Assembly (NCBI GenBank): GCA_964187785.1
Contig: OZ076409.1
Location: forward strand, 37,202,001-37,266,000
Length of the DNA stretch: 64,000 nt
From: Amphiscolops sp. MND2022
Taxonomy: Eukaryota
Direction of reading: 5' to 3'
The notes below the pieces were generated by a model. It did not search any database, was not told the origin of the DNA, and saw only the letters and a list, made by a program, of their open reading frames with translations. Each line of letters begins with the position of its first letter. The first letter of the stretch is position 1. Of this stretch, positions 20,321 through 61,331 are shown piece by piece. Position numbers and translations under genes: made by a program.

Positions 20321-21351
20321 GTGAGTATAGCAACACCCCCTCACAATTCCACCTCTTGGGTCAAAGTAAAGAAAATGAAATGTAGGAAACAGCATCAATT
20401 TCTATTTCCAGGGTAAAAGGAGAATAACGTCTAAAAAAAGACCAACCCTCGAACTAGAAAATACCAATATGACTACAGATAGTGGAAATACATCAAAGCA
20501 CACATCAGACTGGCAGACCACACAGCTAAAAGCTGGGGCTCTATGTACCAAATAAGGATCTTCAAGAAGAATCCCGTACTGAGGTCCCATGCGATCCCAT
20601 GCATGGCCATGTCACTTTTAAGCATGGAATTGCATGGACCATGCATGGACCATGCATGGCCATGCATGGTTTTGAGGGGAAAAGCAATCGCAAAAACGCC
20701 CGAAAACGACTTCTAGAAAGGCAATGAAACACCTGACTTAATTAAAAACTTATCTATGGTCTTTTCTGAGATGAAAAAAAATTCAGTAAAAATATTCAAT
20801 TCAGAAACAACGTTAGAAATGTGCCTTCAGAGATTGGGTAAAAAGCATATTGGGGGAAAGCCACAGGACCTAAAATTAGGAACTTGACGAAACTTCTTAT
20901 ACACAATCCTCATAAAATGTAGAACAATTGTGGAAAGTTTGAGCAAAATCGTCTCGATAGTTTTTGAGATTATAATGAATTTGAGATGAAAAATCGCAAT
21001 TTCTAACATTTTTGTAATCATTTTTGGCTATTTCTCAGATCCTATAAATACGAAATTGATGAAATTTTATACACACGATCCTCATAAGGTGTGTCCACCA
21101 CAGACAAAAAACGACACACTAGCAACGAGAAATATCGAATAAACAGTCAAATAGAACAAAGTTACGCGCCAATCCATTCAAAGAGCACTGTTGGATGTCT
21201 ACCGAGGTCCTTCGGAAAGTCACATCAGGACCACGGAAAATCCGTTTTTTCTAGTCTCGGCTGGCCGACTGAAACAGTCGACACTAGCGGGGCTACCAAC
21301 GAGCAGGTGCAAAATAAAGCCCCATTCACAACGAAACATTCATAAGACACC

Positions 21352-22597
21352 TGTCATGCCTGCCAAGCATGAAGGAAATAAATGAACCCTAAAATACCAA
21401 TTCATACATCAAACTCCCTAAAATACAAATCATCATGTAAATACATTACAGTAGTTTAATTGCCGAACAATACAGTTGAACACATAACGACTGAAACCAA
21501 CAAACATCCATTCATGTTATTGTGCATCGTTTAAACATCCATTCATGTTATTGTGCATCGTTTAAACATCCATTCATGTTATTGTGCATCGTTTAAACAT
21601 CCATTCATGTTATTGTGCATCGTTTAAACATCCATTCATGTTATTGTGCATCGTTTAAACATCCATTCATGTTATTGTGCATCGTTTAAACATCCATTCA
21701 TGTTATTGTGCATCGTTTAAACATCCATCCATGTTATTGTGCATCGTTTAAAAACCAGGACTGGAATATCCAGTCATTGCAGATGATTTATACATGTACG
21801 ACTGAAACAATCAGTCATCAGCTATCGTGATAGTGCATCATTTAACCATTGTTTTTTACACTTTTTATATTACATGTAAAGTATTACTAGAATACTCAAT
21901 CATTTCACAACATTTCGTCTATTTATATCAGTAATTAGTGCAGTATCCATTAGTAAATTACTTCAAAACGATATTTAAAGCAGTCACTATGATGATAAGG
22001 ATACACGGTAGTAAAGCCTCAGTTTAAGAGGTAATTGAGTTAATCGAACACGGAAATGACTGGTGCTTGCGGTCATACTACATCAAACAAGAGTAATTAA
22101 ACACCTATTATCACCCGCGACGACTGGTAGTTGCAGTCGTCAAGTGCAATTAAACAACAATTAGTAGATTGAACGTACGTCATTGGCTAAAAGGAAAGGT
22201 GCTAACACACTTTTATAATTACTCAATCGGGCAATACCAAAAACACACGAATTGTAACTTCTGACGAGACAAGTTGCTTACTACCGTACCTTGAAATCAT
22301 CAATTCTTACTTAAACCTAACACACTTCAATTCAAACTTAAAGTCTCCAACCTCTTTATGGTAACTACCAGATCTCAAAGTAATCAAAATAGACAGACAG
22401 AAAACGGAACTATGAACAGGTCAAGCGATAGTGAAAGCGAAACTAGTTTCCCTGATGTCTTATCGAGAGACCAAATTGCAGACCTTGACTCTGAGGACGT
22501 ATTAACCAGGCGTCAGAATAACAATAACTATGACATAGATCATCGGTTTAATGAAATAAATAGACAAATCGGAGACCTTACGGACATTGTACTTAGT
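21352..22597 (+). repeat. 5' LTR (3' end truncated by the internal deletion)
   Basis: Matches 24539-25790 except for a 4-bp duplication near 22175. Confidence 0.95.
21502..21749 (+). repeat. 8 x 31-bp tandem array inside the 5' LTR
   Basis: Unit aaacatccattcatgttattgtgcatcgttt; last unit has one substitution. Confidence 0.97.
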
Positions 22598-22603
22598 CCT
22601 TAG

Positions 22604-23729
22604 TTAACTACCAACCCCCCCCCCAAAATTACTACTAAAAGCTCCTCGCATGATCTTGTGAGATTCATTACCAGGTTTTGAAGTCGTCGCAACGCCAGAG
22701 GAAGATGGAGCACCAGATGGAGCCACACTCCGTTCACCTAAGTCTGATGGCGGCACGTCCGAGTCCACACATGTCCGGCGACTCTCAAACCCAGCTACAC
22801 TGCCAGCGACAGATGACGAGCGCGGAAGAACATCACCCACACAAGGAGAGAATGACGATTGACCGAGTTCCTGCAGTGCCCCCTTCAGTTTTCCAAGGAA
22901 CTCCTCAACGGCGAGAGCACCCACCGTTCCTAGCTTGCCAAGGCTTGATTCAACAGCTGCCTTGACCCACTGTTGAATTTCTCGTTCCACACGTTGGAAC
23001 AACTCCGTGAACTGGCCCACAATGACGTCAGCCCGAACGTTGGCATCTACAAAGCAACCAACAATTTTCAGCACCTACTTAGAACCGAACGAACGAAGAC
23101 GCCTATCATCAACTGAGTAGAGAACAGCAACCGTATACTGCAGGCGCTGGTATGGAAGAAGACCCCCCCAACATATAACTTAGCTTAACAGTAACCGCAA
23201 ATGCACCCACCGAGATGCGAAGAGAGGAAAGCATCCAAACGACGCAAGATGGGAGCAGAATCCAAATCAGCACTCCCGGAGGACCCAGTAGCCACGGAAG
23301 ATCGAAACTGGCGCAAGTAGGAGACTAACTCGGTCATGTTGACATCAGCTACAAAAATAGTGAACAGTCTCAACAACAGAGATGACATAGACGCTCCAGT
23401 TGTTCTGGGATCAGCATCCACGGAACGCAACCCCACGACAGAATAACTCAGGCCTAGCGCTTATGGAGAAAGTAAATGTAAAACCAGTACTTACCAAATT
23501 CCTGGGAAAGCACGACATCCAACAAGCAACCCAGATCCCCAACGTTTGACGCAGAAACCCGCGCAGCGAACTGGCAACACTGATTGTTCTCCATCAGCAC
23601 TGCAGATAAATCCAGTCCACTCCCACTCTCATCTAACGGGGGATTACCTGCAGCCATTTGGTCCTCGACTTCAGCAACTAATGCAGAGAGCTCACCACTA
23701 AAGGATAAAACTCCTTCTTCATCTGACAT
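22604..23729 (-). CDS. Putative spliced antisense gene of unknown function inside the LTR element
   Basis: Exon 23729-23495 (MSDEEG...SQEF), 41-nt GTAAGT...TAG intron, in-phase exon 23453-23211, then a further 156-codon frame at 23074-22604 whose junction is unresolved. Confidence 0.6.
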
Positions 23730-24688
23730 TGTCGGAGCGATAAGGTAACACACGACACGATCGGGGATAACAATAAAATGGCGACGGCGACTCGACTGCA
23801 ACAGCTCATTCTTCCATTTCTTATTGTTATAGACTGATCACCTATATCAATATATAATGGACACCTAACCCACCCTATCAAACGGTCTACCCAAGTAATT
23901 ACCGGACATTCGCGGAATCATATTCACGACTCCACCCACAGGATATCAAATGCTAATCAGCAGAGAGAACGCAGTCAAGTTTTCCCTAGCCATAACAGTA
24001 CATATATTCCCTCCCGAGTTAACCGCCTAATCGATACCCGGAAAATACAGGACTAACTGGGAAAAACAAAAATCGCACTACCTTTATTATTGTGGAAGAA
24101 TGAGCAACACCAACGGTTGACAAAACGAAGATGGATAAGGACAAGTATAAACAGGACCAAATTCAATTTTAAAAGCAATAAAGCCAGCAACTGACTCACT
24201 CTACAACAACGCAACAAATCAATCAACTGCCGATGATCGATGAAAAGTTGCTTAAACAAACATTACACTCTATGCGCACTAAACGGATGACGTGGCTGTC
24301 AAACTGTTACTATAAATAAACTTCAACTTCCGACTACCCACTGTTTGCCTACCTCACCTTGTCCATTCATGCTTCCGAAAGTCTCAGCCACTACATTGCC
24401 ACCCACACGTTCTTCCATACCTCGCACGCCACTTCAGCCGCTGTTCAATTCTCAACTCAACCACCTACTACCACTCAACTCAGTCGTTCACCTTTCCCAT
24501 TACCCCTACAGCTCGCTCTCTCTCAAAAAGGGGGGGAATGTCATGCCTGCCAAGCATGAAGGAAATAAATGAACCCTAAAATACCAATTCATACATCAAA
24601 CTCCCTAAAATACAAATCATCATGTAAATACATTACAGTAGTTTAATTGCCGAACAATACAGTTGAACACATAACGACTGAAACCAAC

Positions 24689-24936
24689 AAACATCCATTC
24701 ATGTTATTGTGCATCGTTTAAACATCCATTCATGTTATTGTGCATCGTTTAAACATCCATTCATGTTATTGTGCATCGTTTAAACATCCATTCATGTTAT
24801 TGTGCATCGTTTAAACATCCATTCATGTTATTGTGCATCGTTTAAACATCCATTCATGTTATTGTGCATCGTTTAAACATCCATTCATGTTATTGTGCAT
24901 CGTTTAAACATCCATCCATGTTATTGTGCATCGTTT
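24689..24936 (+). repeat. 8 x 31-bp tandem array inside the 3' LTR
   Basis: Same unit, same count and same variant last unit as in the 5' LTR. Confidence 0.97.
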
Positions 24937-25540
24937 AAAAACCAGGACTGGAATATCCAGTCATTGCAGATGATTTATACATGTACGACTGAAACAATCA
25001 GTCATCAGCTATCGTGATAGTGCATCATTTAACCATTGTTTTTTACACTTTTTATATTACATGTAAAGTATTACTAGAATACTCAATCATTTCACAACAT
25101 TTCGTCTATTTATATCAGTAATTAGTGCAGTATCCATTAGTAAATTACTTCAAAACGATATTTAAAGCAGTCACTATGATGATAAGGATACACGGTAGTA
25201 AAGCCTCAGTTTAAGAGGTAATTGAGTTAATCGAACACGGAAATGACTGGTGCTTGCGGTCATACTACATCAAACAAGAGTAATTAAACACCTATTATCA
25301 CCCGCGACGACTGGTAGTTGCAGTCGTCAAGTGCAATTAAACAACAATTAGTAGATTGAACGTCATTGGCTAAAAGGAAAGGTGCTAACACACTTTTATA
25401 ATTACTCAATCGGGCAATACCAAAAACACACGAATTGTAACTTCTGACGAGACAAGTTGCTTACTACCGTACCTTGAAATCATCAATTCTTACTTAAACC
25501 TAACACACTTCAATTCAAACTTAAAGTCTCCAACCTCTTT

Positions 25541-25862
25541 ATGGTAACTACCAGATCTCAAAGTAATCAAAATAGACAGACAGAAAACGGAACTATGAAC
25601 AGGTCAAGCGATAGTGAAAGCGAAACTAGTTTCCCTGATGTCTTATCGAGAGACCAAATTGCAGACCTTGACTCTGAGGACGTATTAACCAGGCGTCAGA
25701 ATAACAATAACTATGACATAGATCATCGGTTTAATGAAATAAATAGACAAATCGGAGACCTTACGGACATTGTACTTAGTTTAACTAATCAGTTAGCCTC
25801 CGTTAATGGAGAAGGGAACAGACTTAATGCGGTTACTACCAATACCAACAGTCGTTCCGACA
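25541..25862 (+). CDS. LTR-embedded gag-like N-terminal ORF (107 codons); reads out into the flank to 26053; second copy at 22358
   Basis: MVTTRSQ...RFNEINRQIGDLTDIVLSLTNQL (coiled-coil-like); start resembles MPSTRRQ of the gag at 59535. Confidence 0.7.
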
Positions 25863-26019
25863 ACACCCAAAAAATGAGGTTACAGGTATATCATGCTCCA
25901 AATAACCGGTATAGCCCTTTTAGCTGTTTCCGCCATTTTCAATCCAAAATGAGGACGAGAGTAAACCGAGCGGAAACACCGAGACGGAAACCGTTTAAAG
26001 AGAGCTTAAAGAGACTGAA

Positions 26020-26100
26020 CAAAATTCTAATCCGATGTTTGACGTGGCGCTAGGCATGTGACATGCCTAGCGCCCTGTCAAACATCGGATTAGAATTTTT
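26020..26100. repeat. ~80-bp palindrome
   Basis: aaaattctaatccgatgtttgac..ggcgctaggcatgt-g-acatgcctagcgcc..gtcaaacatcggattagaatttt. Confidence 0.9.
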
Positions 26101-27251
26101 CACCAACTTTCTGAACATATCCAAATTTCAAAATTGCCTGAATATACTCATTTCTCATCTTAAACGGCGATATCTTGAAGAGAGTTAACATTCTTTCAAA
26201 GAGGAAGATTATCAAATATAAAATTTCGTTTTTTTTCACATTCAGATATCAATTTTATGGCGCAGTCTGTACTGGCAGTCCATCACAAACCACCGGTGAC
26301 CACCTGTGGAACACCAGTGACCATCGGTGGAGGCAATTTTGGATATTCAGTCATTATTTCCACCGGTGGCTAGCGGTGGATTTTTTTCGCAAAATGAAAT
26401 TTTATTTCTGTAAAATTGTTGAAAATGTACTTTATTGATTGTCAAAATTTCAATATGGATCCGGATGTTATTTCAATTTTCAAAAACGTACATCTGCAGC
26501 AATAAAGACTATTTTGGCACCGCATGTCCGCAAGCCGCGATGTAGGCAATGCTGCAGCATTTAGCTGAGCCAAAACAAAAAAATATACGAGCTGATAGCG
26601 CAGAGGTAAACGCTGGACTGTCAACAAAATAATCGCAGGTTCATGTCACGATTTTTGCAATATTTTATATACAACATAAAGTGTTTCCACCGGTGTCAGG
26701 TTCGGTTCATCAGTAATTCAATCAACTTGCCGCGTTTGTTACTCAAAATTATATATTTTGGAACGCGTGTTGTGATAATAAATCAAAAACACCTTGAATT
26801 ACCTTCCAGTCAATGATTTTGTCCCAAGGGTTTCGGCCAGTTAGGTTGTTTGGCATTGAATTGACAAAAATGCGTTATCGGAGCTTTCCGAGAAAATGCA
26901 ACTATTATATTGATAGGTCCTGAATCGATAAAAAAAAGGTTTGAATCGATCCGTGGTTTGTGAAGTATTGAAAACTGATTCAAGAAGTATTAGTGGAATT
27001 GGAAGAGTATTTAACTTTTCTGGAAAGATTTTGAGATTTGTTGGGACTTGTATTTTTTGCACTTTCGGAGTGTTCGAAACTCGATATTCAAATGTTCGAA
27101 CAATATACCACTACAGCGTCTTTAATTCTGGCCAAAGAACTCAACACCAGTCAGAAATTTTAAATCATTTTAAAAATGCTCAAGTCGAATGAGGAGAGTG
27201 TTTGACTTGGTTCCAATAATTTATACAAGCTTCTGTAAGTTGGTTTTTCAG

Positions 27252-40802: not shown

Positions 40803-43800
40803 TGTTGTCAACCGTCGTTATATATTGAAGTATACCTAGAGGGCAAACTCTAGACTTGAAACTATTTATGTTGTTACTATCATAGAATCTGATATTTAGT
40901 CTGGCTGAAGTACCTGCTGCCTATAACATTATGAGTATTAAGCAAGACACACTCAGTAGCAAAAGATGGATCAGAAAATACAGTTAAATGCTAAACAATT
41001 TATTCACCTCAGAAGAGAATATATCATGGCGCAATCAGGCTAACGTCTAGCCAAGAACTTATTCAAGAATTCAGCCAAAATCCATCCAAGAATGGACGAT
41101 ACAAACAATACGCCACCAATGAATCGTGGCCGAACCCACCAGACGACGGAACAAGCTTCAGGCAGACTGCCGTTCAACGAAGCAACCACGAAAACAGGAG
41201 AACGGACTTGCACCCAAAAGCAAACCAAACCTATCTGGACAACTCCAATCAAACGTATGGTGGCGCAAGTACATCCAGTACATAACGATGACAAACATCT
41301 CAACTATGGTAAACTCAAAAGAACTTTTACCACAATACTGTGAGCAGCTACAAACCGAATTCAAAAACATATTGCTGTGGGCAATCGGGCAGAATGTACT
41401 TACGGAGATGATCAAAAGGGTAACGGAGAGAGAACCTAGCTTCCTACCGTTGTACAAACTGTATACATAATTCCGACTACACTACTCGCCAGAGAGAAAC
41501 GTACAACGCAGCCAGCTGAGCTGTTTTTTATTCAAAGGCGAATCAGCGGAGAAAACTGGAAAAGACTTTAGAAGTCGAAAAAATTTGCGTGTTTGAAATT
41601 GTCACAGTCGCAGAACTACTAGCATCGAATTTCCTACCACTTACAGGAGATTCTGCGAGCAACTATGAGCTGAAACAAAAATACGCAAAAGCGACACATC
41701 GGTCGAGGAAATAACAGGTGCAATACACGTACACATTTACGAGAAATTAAATGACTCACCAGAAACTGAAGAAGAGAAAAAAATCTGACATGTCGAAAAG
41801 AGAGAATTAAAGATTACCAGAGAACAGACAGAACGTAACATGAAATCCAGAAGAGTATACTGCAACAGATGCAGAGCACCAACTGGTCGCAACATCATGA
41901 AAGTCTCGTAAGAGGTCAAAAGTGCGGAAATTGCAGCAAAACTGGACATCATACTGCATACTGCCACTCAACACGGAAAATAATCCATATAGCGGAAACA
42001 CACAGCGTGGACGAGGACGAATACTTTCAATATACCAGAAGATCTGGGAGGGAGTTAACGGATTGTACCGCCGTTCTAAAGTACAACGCTATACAATAAC
42101 AGGTCAATCAAATTTATAATAAATACAGGATCACCAGTGCCTCTCATTCCGGTATCATAATTCAATAACATGACAGTAGTAAAACCGGTAAATGAAGATT
42201 ACCGGGATGTGAAAGATAATATAATGAAATTGGAGGGAAAAATCTTAGCAAATGTCCAACTAGACTATACAAAGCAGCAATTAGAGTTATTGATAACAAC
42301 CAAAAAAACACACGCATTACTCGGGCTCGATTGGATGGGAAAATTGGGGACCAGCCTCGAATCGGACAAAATCAACGCAAACATGAACCATATAAATAAC
42401 AACATTAATTCGGAGAACACATTAGACCGAAACATAGCGCCACTCAAACTTACGTTCAACAAATTGTTTACGGAAAATCAAACGGTAAAAAATCTGGAAG
42501 TGGACAATCAATCTAAAGATAAGGCAAAATTTGTTCAACAAAAATGTTCAATTCACTTTTAACCTGCAGTCGAAAAGGAAATCGACAAATTAAAAAACAA
42601 AGACACATCATCGATGATGCCAAAAATTTGGATAAAAACTGTTTTGCGAGTCTGCAGTAATCACCATTAAAAATACCATTCAGTAAAAATTGCTCTGAAT
42701 TATTATTGTTTTTAAAACTATAAAAAAACAGTGCAAAGAAACGCACAAATGCCTAATATGGAAGAACTGATATCGTGAAGATCCAGACAAAGAGCGGACG
42801 GACCGGCAGACGAAATATGGATATCAAAGTATGATCAAGATCACGCATACGGACAACTACAGCTCTCGAAACGAACAATGGACCTGTGCATTTTGCAAAA
42901 AGCGGAAGAAAATTTCCAGAGTACGACCGATATCTGAAAGAGTTCTACGGACTAGCCGACATATCAACAAAACTTAACGAAAAAAAAGTTGATCAAAATC
43001 TGGAAAACAAACACCCAGCTTGATTAGACGGTACTATATTAGTACCAAAAGGTTCTAAACACAAACACATAGACAAACTGAAAGACGTACTGACAAATTT
43101 GAATAAGCAGGATACAGATTGAGCGAAAACAAACCCGAACTATTCAAAAGAGAAGAAGAATGAATTGGACACAAAGTAGACCAGAACGAATCCAGACCGC
43201 TGCAAGACACAGTAAACGCCCTAGAAGAATTGAAAAGTCCCGAAAGCGAAGAGGTACTAAAATCGTTCCTAGCAACAATCCAATACCTGTCCAAACACAT
43301 TAAAAATCTCTCAACCCAGGCGGATATCTTGCGACAATTGCTCAAGAAAGCTAATCAAGGGAATTGGACGGAAGAATAAACAAAAGCGTTTAAAACTTGA
43401 TACAAAAAAGAACGGATATACCGTGTCTGGCACACTATAACTCAAATTCTTCGAACGTAATAACAACAGACGCTAGTGCGAAAAGACGGAGTGCCGCGCT
43501 GTGACAAGAACAACCGAACGGTGAATGAACACCGATCGGATTTGCCAGTCGTTTCCTTTCTGACACGCAAAAGAAATGCGCAATCAATGAATTAGATCTG
43601 TTATCCATAGTATGGGGACTAGACCTTAATCGTCTTACATCTATGGTAAAGCGATAAAGTTACTCACAGACCACCAATCATTAGACCCAATAGTCAAACG
43701 CAATCGATCAAACAAAACGTAGAGCGCACGGCTAACAAGATGGCCTGACCGATTACCACATTTCTAAATTAACATGATCCATATAACCGGTAAACACTTA

Positions 43801-46179
43801 TCATTGGCGGACCATCTCAGCAGAAACCAGTCCTCGTCACCACAAGCGGAAGACGCATACAAAACAGAAAACGTAATCAACAACATCCTATTGCACTACA
43901 AGTTTACAACCGAATGCCTTAGCAACCATTTCAACCAATCACAGCGCAGCATGACAATAACTAAGATGCAAAACAATTAACAAAATGACATAATACGAAA
44001 CGCGTGAACAAACCGCCATTGACTTCCTTATTACGACGCCAAATAGCTGTGCTGTACAAAAACCTAAAGAAATCGAAATGGATGTGAAAATCAAAAGCAA
44101 CTTTGAAACAATGGACCCATCTGCTGAAACCGAAAATCTAATCGGAAGATGGCGCGACACGGTCCCGCTCGGTATTTATCGTCAATTCGGCGGTTGCTGA
44201 AAAAAGTTCCACCAACCAAAAATCCTTCGAAACGGAAGAAGCATAGTCGAAGAACACTTACATCAAGCCGAAAGAAACCTCAAAAATAGAAACAATCGGC
44301 ACCAGGCTGAGGCTTTTAACCGCAAACGACATGGCATGAGCAATGGACCGTAGACCCATTGTGCGGAGTAGACCGTCAACAACAACAACCAGAAAAAGCA
44401 GAAGCGTCCGAAGAACAACCCGGGCCATCAGCATCAAGAAGAGGACAGACGTAAAAAGAGTACAAGCCGATGGAGGAGAGAGAGAGATAGAGTCGGACAC
44501 CGACCAACATCCATCGTCATTGGAGGTACCAGCAGTAAACTGAGCAACGTACAAGGGCGTCAAAAGCGTCCAATACAAAAAGATGGGCCTTGCACCCATA
44601 CTGAATGCTGAAGAACCGAACAGCTGGGACCTCAATAACGCAGTAAGCGAAACAGACAAATTTCTCCAAAGATCTCCAACGACTCGCACCTCCCAAAGGC
44701 ATTTGTTTGCATCGAACGCCAACAACAATACAATATGCCAGAATTTTTTATCACTTATAAAAAGAAACTTTCGACGGACAGATACGGCCTAGTGTTTTAC
44801 GAGGACCGTATTATCGTGGCCGAAAACCAGCGGTCAAAAGTGGGCCACCGCGCCAACAACAAGATGTCCCTAGCGGCCAGACAGTAAACCAAAGGAAGCT
44901 GGAGGCGGGCAAACGACGGTGAGATTTTCAAAAAGATTTCTAAATTTGAATGGCATCACAAAAACAATTAGGACGGAAAAGGCCAACGCGTTCGCGGCCA
45001 TAACGTTCAGAGAATGTTGCAAAAATAACACCAAAAAACCTATATAAGGAACACCGTACAATACAATCATGCCCAACGGGACTGGTCGAATGTGAAGTAA
45101 GAACACTAAATAAGACATTACTGACAAATATAAACGCGGGTGAAAAACTAAGCAAAGCCTTAGTCATAGCATTCAATGCTATGATGAAAACACTTCTTAC
45201 AAAAATAAAGAAATCCGCCTTTGAGATGCACTACGGCGGCGGACCGAACACCAAGATTAGCAATATTCTTAAACCCGATGTGTGAACGACATAACAGAAA
45301 CTTCAATTTCAGCAAAACAAGATACCCTGAAGTTATATTCATTCAATAGAGCTGGCGGTCCCTCTGACTAACTACCGATGAAACAGAAGAAAAGAACAAA
45401 GGGAGTTAGTAACTATTCAATTCTCTTCCTCGAAAAAAGACAACGAAACCAAAATTTGAAAGTGCCAACTCCGGTAAACCACAAAGAGCCATATCGGACA
45501 CTAAACATGCAACCACTACCTCTGAAAAAAAGTCCTACATAAAAACACATGATTAACCCTTTTGCTGAATTTATCCAGAAACCGAACCCAAAGGAACCGG
45601 GCCACGTGAACCAGACGGCCGATTCACCAAATTCCAAAGCTGTGCAGAAAACTTGAATCGGAGAGCGACTCTGGAGAACAAACGCCAACCCAACAACAAT
45701 CGAGAACCACGAAAGTAAATGACAGAAACTCAGCAGCATTGATCCAGTCGCCAACAGACACTAAAAAGAACGAACCTTTCGGAAGAGACGACCGAAGTTG
45801 ATCCAGAACAGACAGTGCTACGGTTCACCAATGGGTTCACCTCGACAACCGGACCAACACTAGGACAGCACTGGCCCAATAACCATCGAGGCCTAAAATT
45901 TGACGGATACGGAAGTAGACCGTGGCATTGAGAACAACAAAAAGCAAACAAAGAATTGAATTTATAAGACAAGAACGGAAAGGGAACTCTAACTTTAAAG
46001 AAAACTTTTACGGAGAGGAAGAAGAAATTGTGGAAAACAATTCAGAAATGGAAATGACTGAACTAGAACTACTTAACAATTCAATTTCAGGCACAGAAAG
46101 AGAACAATCTGCCTGAAGTACCTACTACTGCAACATAATGAGTACTAAGCAAGTGACACTCAGTAGCAAATAATAGATC
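40803..46179 (+). mobile_element. Decayed Ty3/Gypsy LTR retrotransposon
   Basis: LTR ends ...TATCA at 41026 then PBS-like TGGCGCA; broken RT (HAYGQL, FYGLAD), RNase H (TDAS, GFASRFL, TDHQ, ADHLSR) and integrase remnants; diverged LTR copy at 46110-46179; LTR start approximate. Confidence 0.9.
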
Positions 46180-48852: not shown

Positions 48853-51800
48853 TGTTAAAGAGCACGATAAAACTGAATGAATGTAAATACTGAATTCATA
48901 AATCAACTGTACTCAACGTAAAGACTATATGGTGAATGATCTTTCGTTCAAGTTTCTTCATTACAATTTGGTTGATCAACAACCTGTATCTCTTTTTAGT
49001 GAGTTACGTAGCATCGCTTAGAGCTCTGCCACATATATATTGTAGGCTACATGACTTCAATGATAATGTAATAATGGAGTACATCGTTTGTAGACAGTTT
49101 TTATTTTGTAGTTCTTGTTTCTTCACTCCCTTTTCTACTTCTCCCCTTGTGACTCTTCCCTCTCTTCTGGCAGGTCCCCGTTGTTGCCGGGATTCCTTTC
49201 CGCTAGCTGTTTCTTCTCCGTTAGAGAGTTTTCCTCCTTGTCGCCCCTTCGAGGTGAAAGCTCGGCGACCATGATGTTATGGCCATAGAAGTCTAGCTTC
49301 AGTTTAGTTCACCGCGTCTCGTTATTTTGTGTTCCTCGGCTTGATGTTTGCTTGGCTGGGTGTCGACATTTCTTCTTTTACTGGGCCCGTCCCTTTTTTT
49401 CTTCTTCGGATTCTGATTCCGCGTGAGGTTCTGGTCTCTTTAGTATCTGTATTTTTTTCTCATTCGCGATAGTTTCTTCGCTTTCTTCTGCTCCTTCCGG
49501 AGCTTCCTTTGGCGTGCTTTCGGCTTGAGTTCGCTCAATGCGGCTTTCCCTTGCCTAGTTTGCTCTTCCGTAGCGGCGCGATTTTTATTGGTTATCTCGC
49601 TGTCACTTGGTAGTTATGATTGGCTTGCCATTTCGTCCAATTGTGGCACTTCACACTCAAGTGTCACGTCGCTCTCAATTGTGCTTTCGTTCTTCTCTTG
49701 CTCTGCAGTAGCCGTTGCATTCGACGTTCTTGGCTGCCATCGGGAACAGCAGGGCTGGTCATCATTGCTGCGTCCCACATCACGTTTAGAGATTATTGTG
49801 GTTTGAGTTCTCCCGGCCGAAAGGATAATACTCGTGTGATTACTGTGTTCTAGCAGGGTCCCTTTTAGCTTTTTGGAAGCCCCTTCGAGTTTTGACTCAC
49901 GCGTTTTTTAACGGACCATCATTGCCGAATCCTGTCCCGACTCAAAATCTTCTCCAGCTAGTTTGACCTCTGGTGTCTCTGAAATGAACTGACTTCCGTT
50001 AGGTACTAATCGTTCCCTAGTATTCGGTTCCTGTCACGTAAAGCACTCGTAAAGCGACTTTCTATTGGCCGACGGGTTCATTCGAAGTGCGAATAGAATT
50101 TCTGGTAGACCTGATTTGTCTTAACTTAATATTGTCTTCTTATTCGTGCGTAGCCTCTCATGTACTGTTCGAATTAGCAGTTCTATTTCGCCATTACCTC
50201 TATGATCCCTAATTGGGCATTCAATGTAATTGATGAATCGCTTTCTACAAAGCTCCTTAAACTTGTTACTGCGGAACATTGTTCAGGGTCCGTTCTCATT
50301 GTCTTTGGAATTCCATGTCGTACAAAGTCCTTTTTTAGGAACTCACTTACCTTGTCCGTATTCGGTTCACGCAAACACTTTGCTTCCGGTCAACCTGTGA
50401 AATTCTCAATCGAGACTAAGATGTATTTCCTAGCTCCTATTGCATTTCGAAATGGCCTAGCGATATCTATTGCTATGTCTTGATTATCTCATTACATGTT
50501 AGTAGTTGACCTGCTTGGTTTGGTCTTAAAAGCAGTTTAATGCATTTACCGAAAGTTTCACATTGTTGGCAAGTTTGCGCGATTCCCACTACTTCGCGAT
50601 GAAGTCACGGCCACTACACATTGGCTACCTTTGCAGGCTTGCTGTCACGGCCTGGGTGCCCGTAATGCAGACTGCGTAAAATAATAGGACGTAACTCTGT
50701 AGGGATAACCAGCCTTTCATCCCAATGAAGGAAATCATGATGGTCATCCAGGCTAAAGATGGTCATACGAAACTTTCGTACCAGGGCACAGGAAGGCGAT
50801 TAATTTTTGTTGGCTCAGGCTTCTTGAGGAGATCGATGTATTTCCGAATAAATTCATCAGCCTTGAATTGGGCTGCAAATGTGTAATTCCCTAGATTCTG
50901 AAGGATTTCAAATCGATTGATTGAGTAAAACATTGGCATTCCCAACGGCAGTTTGTCGGCGAATTCAATTGTGATCGTTTCACACATCTCGCTATCTGAT
51001 TGGCTGACCATTAGAGAGCTGTTAACCGGTTCACAAAATGACGCAATTTTGTTCTTAATTGTTAGTTCCTCTTGTTTACTCAACGTCTTCAAGCTCACCA
51101 CTCCGCACGGGTCCGTCAGGTCGCTCTTTTCTGCCAACTCTGTTGTGATTGCCTGATTCTCTGTCTCTCGTCTAATTTGTTCATCTGAAACAATTTTCTC
51201 ACACTTTGTTTTGTTTACCGTGAACCAATTGTTCCATAACTCCTCCGCCTTTACCTGGACATCATTATTACTTCGGCCATTACTAGTCGACCATTTCCAG
51301 GGTTCTACCGTGTGCGTGCGTTACAGTAAATTGGAATGGCAGGAACTTATCTACCCAGCGCATTAGTCGATTTGAGTAACTTTTATTTGCCCTGTTTTTT
51401 ACAAATAATGTCAATGCCTTGTGGATCTGACACGACCTCAAGTTGCCAGCCTTATACAAAATTTCTAAAGTTGTCAATGGTCCAAACAGCAGCCAAAAAT
51501 TCCAATACGTTTATGGAAATTTTTGTTCGGAGAAGTCAGAAATCGTGATGCGAAATGTGTTTCCCTGCAACCATGCTCCGTTTTTGCTTCCAACGCAAAA
51601 AATTCGCAAAGGTTGCTCGCTTTTGAAATGGAATCGTTTTATTTCTGTGATCTTTTGAATTTCCTTCTTTAATGCTTGGAATGTTTTATCATGCTCATCT
51701 GTCTATTTCCATTCCTGTGCTTTGCTAAGTTAAGGTCGTAACGGTGCACACAATGTCGCTAAATGGGACTTAAACCTATTCATCTGTTTCAACGCTGCCA

Positions 51801-54185
51801 TTAAAGAGCGCAGTTTCCTTGGATTCTTTGGACGTAGTCGATCTGAAATTGTCTGAGTTTTCTGAAAAATGGGTTTGACTCCAGTTTCCGATAACTAGTA
51901 TCCCGGCCATTCGATCCTTGTTTGTGCAGTTCTGTATTCTTCCACTTTTATTCGGATGCCCACTCCGTCTGATACTTTTAAGAATTCTTCAACTTTTGCC
52001 ATGTGTTGGTCCTTTGTCCCTTTAGTGACTATAAGGATGTCCTTAATGAACGCAAATATAATTCTAATGTCATGCAATATCTGATCCAATATCTTTTGGA
52101 ATACTGAAGGTATTATCGTTAACCCATTATACCCGGTATTAAAGGAGTATGTCCCCGTTGCTCGGCCCCCGAGGATCTGAAAATTACAATGTCGGGCAGT
52201 GTCCGGGTGTAACTCCTTTTGTCCGTACGCATACAAAATTTCTAGAGATGTAAATCTGACTTCTCACTCACTTCTTTCATTTATGATTTCTGCCACTTGC
52301 TCCATCAAATTGTCGAGGTTAGACATCTGATATCCTTTTGGATGGCATCATTCAGGGATCTGGCATCTAACGCAACCTTCACAGATTTGTCTTTCTTGAC
52401 TGTAATGACAACGGTTTGTATGAAGACGTCATCGTTGATCTTCTCCACTCTTCTAATGTGGTCTCTTTTCAGCAACTTAATAATCTCTACTTCCACTGCT
52501 TCTTGCCGTTGTAATGGGATTCTGCGTCCTTTCTTTTGGATAAATTTGGCATCCTTCTTGAACTCAAATTTAACTTCATGGCCTTTTAATTTCCCTTGTC
52601 AAGAAAATAACTTTTAAAATTTTTGTTTCAGTGTTTCAATGGCCTTACGTTCAGAAATAGTGTTAATAACATTGAAATAATCACCATTTCCGTTGGCTTT
52701 CCCGACCCTGAAGTTGAGTTACGTGAGCAAGTCACGTCCAATTATTGATCCTTCTCCATCTCTGATGATCACGATTCTGGCGTTTTTCAGTTTTCGCTTT
52801 CCCACTTCGACGTCCATCGTCATGAAACCGAAGAGGTTTAATGGTTTATTGTTATAATCCACGTTTTGTTAGTTTTTGGCATTGGTCTTGCAACGATTAC
52901 GTCTTTTTTATCAATTTTTTCAGGTCTGCCTGCGTGAATATGGTGATCGGTGAACCCGAACCGATCATCGTTGCAAACGGAACATTGTCTATCTTGCCTT
53001 TATTCATAAATGATCGATTGCCTCCGCCGCCTACATGCAGCCCTATGTTGTCCTCATCTTGATCGTTGCCGTCCTCTAATTGGTTGCTGTCTTGTTCAAT
53101 CGGGTCGATCCGCCGCATAACGGTTCTATTCACCATCGTGCCTCTTCCCCTTTTGTTGCCAGTTTTTGGCTTTTTGCATATTAGCTCGAAATGGCCACTT
53201 AGCGCACAATTTCTACCCCTCTCATTCTTTGCCTCCCACACGGCCATGGGATTCTGGGGGAATTTTAGTCCACATCTGCTACATGGGTTATACTTTCATT
53301 GACTGTACATACTGGTTCGTTTTTGACTTCTTTCATCACATTTCTACCTCCGAATGTTCGATGTTGATTCATGGCTTCTCCCGTGAGCAATCGCAAATCA
53401 AAACGCCTCTTGTGTATCGTTTTTAGGTTCAGTACACAGCTTCTGGTACACGGTTTTATAGTTCATAATTTCAAAGAATGTGTCCCTTATGCGTCTGCTC
53501 GCCAAAGTCGCATTTCGAGGCCAAACCAGTTAAGTTTTGCTAAAAATGTCGGAGTGTTTCCTTGGAATTTTGCTTTCGTTAAACGAATTTGCATCTTTTA
53601 GGCGTTCAGCTTCTGGGTTTTCGAAACTTTTCGTCACACTTGCCTTTTATCTCCCGTAGTGCTACTGTGGCCACCCTCATGTGGGGAAACTTGTCGGTAA
53701 ATCTTTTCCTCGCTGTCGATCACAGAGATAAGAAAAGGACTCTTATTATTTTTCTTTCAGCCGCCTGCTCTGTCAGATAGCTTAAGAGTGCTGGTTATCG
53801 CAGTTGTTGTTCGGTTACTTCCCGTAACATTTCCGTCACTGATATTGAATAATTTGCAATGGTGGCAACCGTAAAGATGTCCCATCATTCCTCCCATTCT
53901 GTTCTGGGTGCTATGTCTGTCGAATCCCAAAAAGTTGGCAATCCAGACACAGCTGACGCTCCCCCGATGTTGACACTTCCTCGCTGGATTGTAGATCGCG
54001 CAGCGCCATGGTATAAGCTCAATAAAACTGAATGATTGTAATTACTGAATTGATAATCAACTGTACTCAACGCAAAGACCATATGGTGAATGATCTTTGG
54101 CTCAAGTTTCTTTAATACAGTTTTGTTGATCAACAACCTGTTTCTCTTTTTAGTGAGTTACGTAGCATCGCTTAGAGCTCTTCCA
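48853..54185 (-). mobile_element. Decayed Ty3/Gypsy LTR retrotransposon
   Basis: Diverged LTRs 54009-54185 (truncated) and 48853-49125; PBS-like TGGCGCTG at 54008-54001; PPT just right of 49125; remnants of gag (LPTFWD, knuckle), RT (LDARSLN, YAYGQ, FIKDILIVTKG) and integrase (HGIPKTMRTD). Confidence 0.92.
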
Positions 54186-58631: not shown

Positions 58632-59534
58632 TAGCAAATGCTTTTCCCAAACTGAAAACAATAACATGAATCATAGAGGGTGTCGCAGGCGGCCGCCTGT
58701 GACGGAATATTATACCAAGTCGGACCCGAAGACGATAACACTAATCCCGGACCGGGCGTACTGCCTATTTGAAAGAAAACTCCACAATACATTGATTATT
58801 TAATTAGCAATCTTCTCATGCACTTTAGTTCATTCATTTGTTGTTATTCTTTTCTACATGTAAATATGAAGTCTTATTAATGTGACTCAAGGTCACCTTG
58901 ACGGCATGAATAATCATATTTTGATGCAATCTTATGTAAATTAGTTGTTGAATTACATTTATAATAATGATGTGAACTAGTACCAAAAGGTGCAAAACGC
59001 TGTACAAGCAGTTAATTTGAATGATGTTGATAACAACAATAGAAAGCAAGATGGCTACTCAAGTGAAAGGAAACGCGTTCAACTGGTACGCTGCTGCCGT
59101 CCAGTTGACGCATAGTCACTTTGCTTCTATCCAATCACGGCGCTACATTTAGTTATAGTTCAATGCCGTCATGCGGACGTTAGGTCCGATTAGTTAACGC
59201 ATGTAGTATTAAACCTGTGGCAGCATGAAAATCACCGTTAACATGTAGTTGTTATTAACCAGTATGTTGCTTCTATTTATAGAACCTATGACGTGTAGTC
59301 ATATGACACCCAGTTACTATATTTAGAATTGTGATGTAATAGTTATTTTTAATAATGATGTCATTACTATTTTTAATCAATGACACCCCAAATACCGTAT
59401 GTCATGCTGTAGTTAGTATATATATGTAAGTTTCAAGTAATATTCAATCATTCAATACGATAATCTCAATACAAACCGTTCTGTTATACGCTTTCAATTC
59501 AACAATCTACTATTGAACAAAACCTTCTTTTGAT

Positions 59535-61331
59535 ATGCCCTCAACTAGAAGACAAAAGGCGAAAGAGAAACGTTCAAGGCAATCCGACATAATGTCTGAT
59601 ATTGAAAATCTAGATGTGATGCTCGGAAATTATTCAAACACTGAAATTAGGGACCAAAACGCAGTAGATGAAATAGAGATTGACCCTGAGTCAAATAGAC
59701 GGCATCAAGGTTTTAGCCATGAGGAAAGTAATTATAGGTCTCTTTTGAATGCAAATTTGAGTGAGAATAGTGAAGTTACAGTAGAAACCAGTAGAGCAAT
59801 CAGTTCGGAAATTTCTTCACAAATGTCAAGGAAATTGGAAGAAATGAAATCTGACCTAAATTCCCATATTATGGAGGTAATAAACTCTGCTATTGATGAG
59901 AAAATACTACCTAGCATCGAAAACGTCATAGTAAATCATAGGGAGCGCAAAAACACAAAGTTGGACCTTCGGTCAGATGGACGGCATCCGAGTAGAAACG
60001 TCCCTATGGACCAGACTTTGGACCTTGGGTCATATGGACGGCATAAAAATAAATTCAGCCAACAGGTCCAGGACTCAAGAGAGAATTTTCCTAGACTAAA
60101 CACAACAGTAAATAACCTTCCAAGTCATCAAATGGAATGTTCAGGAGATTCTGAACAGAGTGAAAATGAAGAAGGTTATGACATGGTGACAGGAGCCAAC
60201 CTTACTCCACATGTAGTCCCTGAATTTCTGACCGGACGTCCCACGCAGTCCCGAAACAAAATTCCCCATCAACAATGCGTCAATGATGACACATTAGACA
60301 CCACTCTCCCGGCACAAATTCCCTCAAACCCTATCAATGACCGGGAAACCCAACCCCAAACACCTTTAGACCCCATAAACAGACTTGCCGATGTCATTAT
60401 GGGAATGAACAACAAATCATCAGCGCAAACACTGATGGTACGACCAGTCAATACCGCCACACTCACATTTGATGGCAAATCTGAAAAATTTGAACTGTTT
60501 GAAGACCTCTTTCACACGGTGATAAAGATGCAACCCGAGATGACGGAAGCAATGAAAATTAATCATTTTCATTCACTGTTGCGCAAAAATGCCCTGCAAA
60601 CCTTCCGCAACATCAGTTCAGCAAATAGACAAACCTTAGAAGACGTACTAGCTGTGTTCCGTAGGAAATATGTCAAACCTGAATCCCAGGCAACTGCCAA
60701 ACACAAATGGCACAAATTGGTGTTTGACCCAAACACAATGAAATTGCCCGATTTTCTTGAGGAACTCAATCAGGGCGCCGAAAAAGCCTTCGGCGAACAC
60801 GCACAAGCCATGATTGACAGTCTGCTATACGCAAAACTCCCACCGAAACTCAAACGCTCAGTCAACATGGCGCGATTAGAGAATGCCACCTACGAAGAAA
60901 TTGTCACTCATCTCGAACGAGAACTGGAGCTGAATGGACTTGAGGAAGGTGACGACATTCCCGTTCCCACAATGTCAACAGCCCCGACAGCCACACGCCC
61001 GGGACAAGGACTCCTTTCATCAGGCATTGACCCAGGAATAACTTGCAACTACTGCAAAAAACCTGGACATGTCAAAGACGATTGTCGAAAACTAAAACGA
61101 AAGGAAGAGCAAAAACGCAATGAAGGCTCGGGTACCAAAAAAGAGTACCCAAAGTGCCCGACTTGTGACAAAACCAATCACCCGGCGGAGAGATGTTGGA
61201 AAGGCGCTGGAGCCCACCTCAAGCCCAAAAACCTCAAATTGGATAGTCCAAAGGAGGACGACGCGACCAGTAGTCGTGATGACCCTACCAACAAAACTAC
61301 CACTTCTATCCTTAAAAACTCAAAAAACTAG
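59535..61331 (+). CDS. gag: Gag, 598 aa, two CCHC zinc knuckles
   Basis: FDGKSEKFELFEDLF capsid-like region; CNYCKKPGHVKDDC and CPTCDKTNHPAERC. Confidence 0.95.
   Translation: MPSTRRQKAKEKRSRQSDIMSDIENLDVMLGNYSNTEIRDQNAVDEIEIDPESNRRHQGFSHEESNYRSLLNANLSENSEVTVETSRAISSEISSQMSRKLEEMKSDLNSHIMEVINSAIDEKILPSIENVIVNHRERKNTKLDLRSDGRHPSRNVPMDQTLDLGSYGRHKNKFSQQVQDSRENFPRLNTTVNNLPSHQMECSGDSEQSENEEGYDMVTGANLTPHVVPEFLTGRPTQSRNKIPHQQCVNDDTLDTTLPAQIPSNPINDRETQPQTPLDPINRLADVIMGMNNKSSAQTLMVRPVNTATLTFDGKSEKFELFEDLFHTVIKMQPEMTEAMKINHFHSLLRKNALQTFRNISSANRQTLEDVLAVFRRKYVKPESQATAKHKWHKLVFDPNTMKLPDFLEELNQGAEKAFGEHAQAMIDSLLYAKLPPKLKRSVNMARLENATYEEIVTHLERELELNGLEEGDDIPVPTMSTAPTATRPGQGLLSSGIDPGITCNYCKKPGHVKDDCRKLKRKEEQKRNEGSGTKKEYPKCPTCDKTNHPAERCWKGAGAHLKPKNLKLDSPKEDDATSSRDDPTNKTTTSILKNSKN

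Follow-up and report, generated by a model that had tools for sequence, protein, structure and literature searches.

An open reading frame inside the LTRs of a Ty3/gypsy lineage in Amphiscolops sp. MND2022 is most likely the N-terminal part of gag

An open reading frame at the 3' end of a long terminal repeat (LTR) in the genome of Amphiscolops sp. MND2022 very probably represents the first 107 codons of gag in a Ty3/gypsy lineage that starts this gene inside the LTR, the copies of the frame in 3' and solo LTRs being by-products without a selected function of their own. LTRs are usually considered non-coding, and gag is usually considered to begin after the primer site. The lineage described here stretches this rule of LTR element anatomy, as from one fifth to more than one third of Gag, including a predicted oligomerising helix, is located in the LTR. 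The frame was found in a window of 64,000 nucleotides, the whole stretch of DNA that was analysed (contig OZ076409.1, positions 37,202,001 to 37,266,000 of the forward strand). Unless another copy or contig is named, coordinates are those of the window and refer to its forward strand.

The element in the window (21352-25862) was found to be a dead, internally deleted Ty3/gypsy copy, flanked by the 5-nt target-site duplication ACACC at 21347-21351 and 25863-25867. The 3' LTR (24539-25862) was complete, with a length of 1,324 nt and TG...CA ends, and was preceded by a polypurine tract (24525-24538) that also precedes the 3' LTR in six of six full-length copies. From its ATG at 25541, the remaining 322 nt of the LTR form 107 codons without a stop (25541-25862). 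The frame then runs for 63 codons into the flank (25863-26053) and ends at 26053, giving a polypeptide of 170 aa. A sequence-only reading of the window had set the LTR limits by the polypurine tract, the TG...CA ends and the ACACC duplication, and had described both the frame open to the LTR end and its extension into a 170-aa chimera; each of these was recovered at the positions given here. A 31-nt tandem repeat of about eight units is located inside the LTR (24689-24939), and differences in the number of these units probably explain the LTR lengths of 1,138-1,324 nt observed among copies.

Alignment to the 3' LTR showed that the 5' LTR (21352-22597) was cut 82 nt short of its end. The two LTRs differed by no substitution over 1,242 nt and by one 4-nt duplication, and the lack of substitutions shows a very recent insertion. 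The 5' LTR is joined to the 3' internal region by a deletion of about 11 kb at an 11-nt microhomology (22587-22597), and this junction was found only once in the genome. As a result of the deletion the copy lacks the primer site, the capsid and pol, and the 5' copy of the frame (22358-22603) stops after 81 aa. The sequence between the LTRs (22598-24538) is a remnant of the 3' internal region with no gag or pol, matching the full-length copy L022 at 99.5%. Antisense open frames were observed in the 3' internal region, on the minus strand at 22604-23074 and 23454-23729 of the window and at 2241-5825 of L022. They are placed between pol and the 3' LTR, were kept in all six full-length copies read, with a stop in the longest frame of one copy, and gave a weak match to a BED zinc finger (E 0.08).

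A genome search resulted in 417 candidates, 40 of which were scored, most of them in pairs about 14.1 kb apart. Contiguity of the frame with gag in full-length copies was a test set beforehand. In such copies the frame crossed the LTR end into TGGTGACAGGAG and continued as a 512-aa Gag at every one of 12 distinct 5' LTRs. This Gag carries two CCHC knuckles in its sequence, and its Pfam matches were to DUF1759 and, weakly, to gag and CCHC. The top Foldseek matches of the Gag model were the capsids of dArc1, PNMA2 and Arc, with a best E of 1.2e-3 and none at 1e-3. The primer site showed 13 nt of complementarity to the genomic tRNA-Leu(CAG) plus CCA. The order of domains in pol was protease-RT-RNase H-integrase, as seen in a 1,608-aa frame of copy L023 (protease 126-212, weak; RT 519-681; RNase H 756-884; integrase 1099-1271 and 1419-1452). 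A 5-nt target-site duplication was present in five of six full-length copies. Mismatched flanking 5-mers were observed around the full-length copy L029/L030 (G000:C1:84.24-84.25 Mb), probably due to ectopic recombination between two copies. Based on the LTRs, primer site, polypurine tract, pol order and Gag, the element of the window family is a Ty3/gypsy LTR retrotransposon.

Membership of Ty1/copia was rejected, as the integrase sits after RT and not before it, and the same position contradicts the Gmr1 order. No family name was found on any of the 120 matches listed in the pol protein search, among the 14 of 150 matches listed in a representative search, or in an Atlas lookup of the lineage. 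Two related pol proteins (P0292 and P0324) carry an additional PF00692 (dUTPase) domain, and several others carry PF09668. In L021 (2753-2771) a run of six A precedes the site where pol, in a different frame, overlaps the last gag codons, a sequence arrangement that suggests ribosomal frameshifting. A long tandem array of tRNA-Leu-like units starts at G000:C8:35587800 and matches the primer tRNA of the lineage; the tRNA 3' pattern had 890 matches genome-wide.

The start of gag inside the LTR, with read-through of the primer site, is a lineage-wide layout. The junction motif, the terminal CA of the LTR joined to TGGTGACAGGAG, occurred 7,527 times in the 1.07-Gb genome, compared to once for the reversed control. 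The first 90 listed of these junctions, all on contig C1, were used as a sample. At least 100 open codons upstream of the junction were present in the ATG-GTG-ACA frame at 68 of the 90, against 0 of 180 for the other forward frames, so the long open frame upstream of the junctions is not due to chance; the reverse frames gave 3 of 270. An intact gag was found behind 51 sampled junctions, 45 of which had an ATG at least 95 codons upstream. [quoted passage not shown] The layout recurs within the window itself, in the 5' LTR of another, distant family (58681-60184, 1,504 nt), whose partner 3' LTR is located 14.4 kb downstream, outside the window. The gag of this family (59535-61331, 598 aa) has 216 codons within the LTR and is read through the primer site at 60185-60196.

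The part of gag within the LTR varied from 103 to 216 codons and fell into eight types. In profile comparisons three types were homologous (99.5-99.8%), two were probably linked (89%) and the others were unlinked, and the probability for type A against each of the seven other types was at most 4.5%. A single origin of all in-LTR pieces was not supported, since several types could not be linked by profile. The types follow the capsid tree with seven changes, which is the minimum, as judged from a quick tree with L081 as an outlier.

The terminal CA of the LTR and the TGG of the primer site spell an in-frame ATG (Met108) in every copy. Gag could accordingly be thought to start at this junction ATG, with the frame upstream of it being an untranslated leader. 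By construction, every copy has this ATG in frame, and such a leader would fit with the inability of profile comparison to link type A to any other type. On the other hand, 24 of 26 non-independent pairs between subfamilies gave a dN/dS of 0.08-0.26 (of the other two, one was saturated and one uninformative), and the values for the window family versus L064 were 0.13-0.15. This constraint, together with the kept frame, shows that the upstream piece is translated and leaves the junction ATG as at most a second start, a role that Met108 may have. A start of gag at the junction is thus very unlikely. The sequence-only reading had set coding constraint on the segment as a further test and had proposed a Gag N-terminus of more than 100 aa duplicated in both LTRs; the constraint was borne out by the dN/dS values, and the duplication follows from the constraint and the contiguity with gag.

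A different picture was obtained when inserted copies were compared with each other. The copy-level test was performed on 19 of 30 unpaired LTR ends, all of a sister subfamily, with the 11 belonging to other subfamilies or aligning poorly left out; 18 of the 19 had no primer site following. Changes private to one copy amounted to 118 nonsynonymous and 34 synonymous, in agreement with the neutral expectation of 76% nonsynonymous (p=0.70). Shared changes were 75 and 70, respectively, and differed strongly from the private ones (Fisher p=3e-6). Differences between 5' and 3' LTRs were few (12 nonsynonymous and 6 synonymous in 28 pairs). The contrast of neutral private changes with constrained shared changes means that selection acts on the master copies while the inserted leftovers drift. 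The segment is coding-constrained only while the element replicates. Selection acting on replicating master copies would also mask any second role of a free peptide.

Solo LTRs carry the frame, as had been predicted from the sequence: it was intact in six of ten solo LTRs with a verified target-site duplication. Among the 30 unpaired LTR ends it was lost in 16. The extensions of the frame into the flank, here called tails, were measured at 34 distinct 3' or solo LTR ends and had a mean length of 17.6 codons, compared to 19.6 codons for the other two frames (p=0.50); the longest was 78 codons. A tail of 63 codons, as in the window copy, was reached by 3.2% of random starts in nearby DNA, and the chance of at least one such tail across 34 copies was 67%. 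The 63-codon read-out of the window copy is a matter of chance length. From 25911 onwards it lies in a dispersed host repeat. This repeat has inverted arms (25911-26141, with a palindrome at 26021-26099), is MITE-like and gave 713 first-look candidates in the genome.

Read-outs such as the 170-aa chimera had also been put forward as seeds of host fusion genes. Raw material for this is at hand, in that the window group alone has 101 exact LTR ends, and tails of up to 78 codons were seen among the 34 measured. The window copy is very young, though, and its tail has a length explained by chance and enters a dispersed repeat rather than an exon. Furthermore, all 14 longer database proteins that contain the segment continue into gag, in a weak search of 202 candidates with spliced genes outside its coverage. 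The seeding of fusion genes therefore found no support, and the probability that it has taken place is considered to be very small.

An explanation for the presence of the frame in every LTR could be the position of the promoter. A TATA-like motif, taken as the predicted promoter, was located at 25395-25401 in the window copy, 146 nt 5' of the ATG. By hand count, with no control for chance, such a motif was present 114-175 nt 5' of the ATG in 35 of 57 elements; the three closest relatives, L063, L064 and L143, lacked it. No AATAAA or ATTAAA at a shared position was found across the 57 elements. The position of the TATA-like motif would predict an RNA start about 110-120 nt upstream of the LTR ATG, and a start at about 115 nt would put the coding piece in R/U5. 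Reverse transcription would copy R/U5 to both ends of the element, so that 3' and solo LTRs would inherit the ATG and the stop-less frame. Solo LTRs would be left by recombination, and in both kinds of LTR the frame would run to the first stop codon of the flanking DNA and decay afterwards.

The segment encoded by the LTR was analyzed by structure prediction. Residues 1-56 were predicted to be disordered, a helix was predicted for residues 48-88 and capsid helices from about residue 173. The confidence of the model was moderate, with a pLDDT of 71-74 at residues 61-80 and of 58 for the whole model. The helix (codons 48-88, 25682-25804) is predicted to be amphipathic, with three chains forming a coiled coil. 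For three copies of residues 45-100 the self-binding score was 0.73, compared to 0.35 for the best control, and the runs agreed in at least 90% of contacts with a pLDDT of at least 76. The mark used for self-binding had been attained by 21 of 30 solved homodimers but by none of 23 monomers, and among animal pairs by 7 of 16. Its calibration used two copies, and it is applied here to three. The predictions support binding and suggest that the segment forms trimers through its helix. The segment may thus consist of a basic tip, a disordered acidic spacer and the predicted trimer-forming helix, and could serve as an oligomerisation head ahead of the capsid, aiding Gag assembly.

The same features allow for a regulatory role. 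A free head, translated from 3' or solo LTRs, could join Gag via the helix and poison assembly, resulting in copy-number control that scales with the number of LTRs. Each LTR has a predicted promoter and its own ATG, the frame survives in six of ten verified solo LTRs, and the piece carries the predicted self-binding helix but no capsid. A truncated Gag inhibitor has a precedent in p22 of Ty1, as described in the part of PMC4599808 that was available. Yet the free head would have no defined C-terminus, its tails are random and the inserted copies decay neutrally, and the presence of at least 7,527 junctions speaks weakly against strong self-limitation. Such a role is considered improbable, albeit less so than the seeding of fusion genes. 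The separate LTR-encoded peptide of the sequence-only reading was likewise not supported, given that no stop terminates the frame within the LTR, that its tails are random and that the private changes in unpaired LTRs are neutral. The preferred explanation is still that of a Gag N-terminus that happens to be copied with the LTR.

Recombination was observed close to the LTR end. L146 is a clear recombinant, with informative sites that split 181:30 ahead of the junction and 10:92 behind it (p=1e-40) and a crossover 38-59 nt past the LTR end. Six other hand-picked triplets, one of which reuses L146, also shifted, with p from 0.03 to 6e-38. A general rule of head swapping precisely at the primer site was not supported by a nearest-neighbour scan (2 of 51 switches at the junction, compared to 0, 0 and 2 further on). 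Silent divergence was higher in the LTR piece in 5 of 39 pairs, four of them involving L079, and lower in none; the control gave none. One frame is common to all types, so it is preserved by crossovers near the primer site. Swaps stay within types, since the head types follow the capsid tree. Taken to its extreme, these features would describe an LTR-written copy-number sensor, fed even by dead solo LTRs, in which 3' and solo LTRs by the thousands fire a capsid-less Gag head that assembles with full Gag through its trimer helix and spoils particles, while recombination near the primer site swaps heads between subfamilies with the frame kept. This combined model has a low probability, similar to that of the free head.

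Several observations on neighbouring sequence were made. Mosaic LTRs, with the front or back half exchanged and internal regions 94-100% identical, were seen in L079 versus L127/L160, L122 versus L164, L084 versus L161/L166, and L146. Silent divergence in the first 100 codons after the primer site was often lower than in the next 200 (2/42 versus 14/37 and 9/28), as in L069/L149 and L067/L161, which suggests an overlapping RNA element, for instance a packaging signal, or recombination. Further pairs of direct repeats about 5.2 kb apart were located in the window at 48861-49031 and 54016-54185, and at 40900-40972 and 46108-46179; these are possibly other, older mobile elements.

The layout has practical consequences. 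Annotation that splits the LTR from the internal region will truncate Gags of this type, and LTR ages and divergences that are taken as neutral will be biased by the coding constraint. Thousands of frames with an ATG and a predicted promoter have been left in the genome and provide a test bed for truncated-Gag self-inhibition and for gene birth, although in the present data the leftover frames decay neutrally. The layout is real, lineage-wide and unusual in its extent, and most likely has no function beyond Gag.

Protein-coding sequence in both LTRs is well known from MMTV sag, HIV nef and foamy virus bel, which are located in U3 and have their own stop. The frame described here differs from these genes in being placed at the 3' end of the LTR and in being part of gag, and no in-frame stop was found before the LTR end that would make it an accessory gene of the LTR. 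Osvaldo, Ulysses and Woot are gypsy elements with long LTRs, and the LTR of Ulysses may contain the start of its ORF1. Culex elements of the Osvaldo lineage use a Lys primer according to the accessible part of PMC3286476, whereas the lineage here uses Leu. The rice elements Retrosat2, RIRE3 and RIRE8 are also gypsy elements with long LTRs and a fast-evolving 5' coding piece, ORF0, which in the portion consulted of PMC3485330 is a separate ORF upstream of gag-pol. Plant elements with additional ORFs (PMC7264820, in part) resemble the present ones in the antisense ORFs that lie between pol and the 3' LTR. ORF0 is not placed inside the LTR in the accessible parts of these two papers, whereas the piece here is inside the LTR and fused to gag. 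A gypsy gag with 100 or more codons in the LTR was not found in the openly accessible literature; most subscription papers, Repbase and GyDB were outside this scope. The layout is not addressed in the accessible parts of PMC3930673, PMC3601003, PMC7197481, PMC7055915 and bioRxiv 10.64898/2026.01.22.698655.

The closest resemblance is to Ty1 of yeast. The copy-number control factor of Ty1, p22/p18, is a truncated Gag that acts as an inhibitor (PMC4599808 and PMC4551931, both in part), and the piece described here is similarly a truncated Gag piece that could bind full Gag. It differs from p22, the capsid-bearing C-terminal half of Gag, in being N-terminal: the capsid starts at about residue 173 while the LTR ends at 107, so the piece has no capsid, and with random tails it has no fixed end. 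In Ty1, as here, the start of Gag lies within the 5' LTR and 3' of the promoter, which is a predicted one in the present case, so that translation crosses the primer site and each LTR contains a start codon. Only about 13 codons are located in the LTR of Ty1, compared to 103-216 here, including a predicted folded helix, and the present lineage has the pol order of Ty3/gypsy and a tRNA-Leu primer. While the Ty1-type layout itself was already known, the contrast between private and shared changes, the random-tail test and the trimer prediction are added here. Compared to yeast Ty1, the layout of this lineage is extended 3- to 16-fold.
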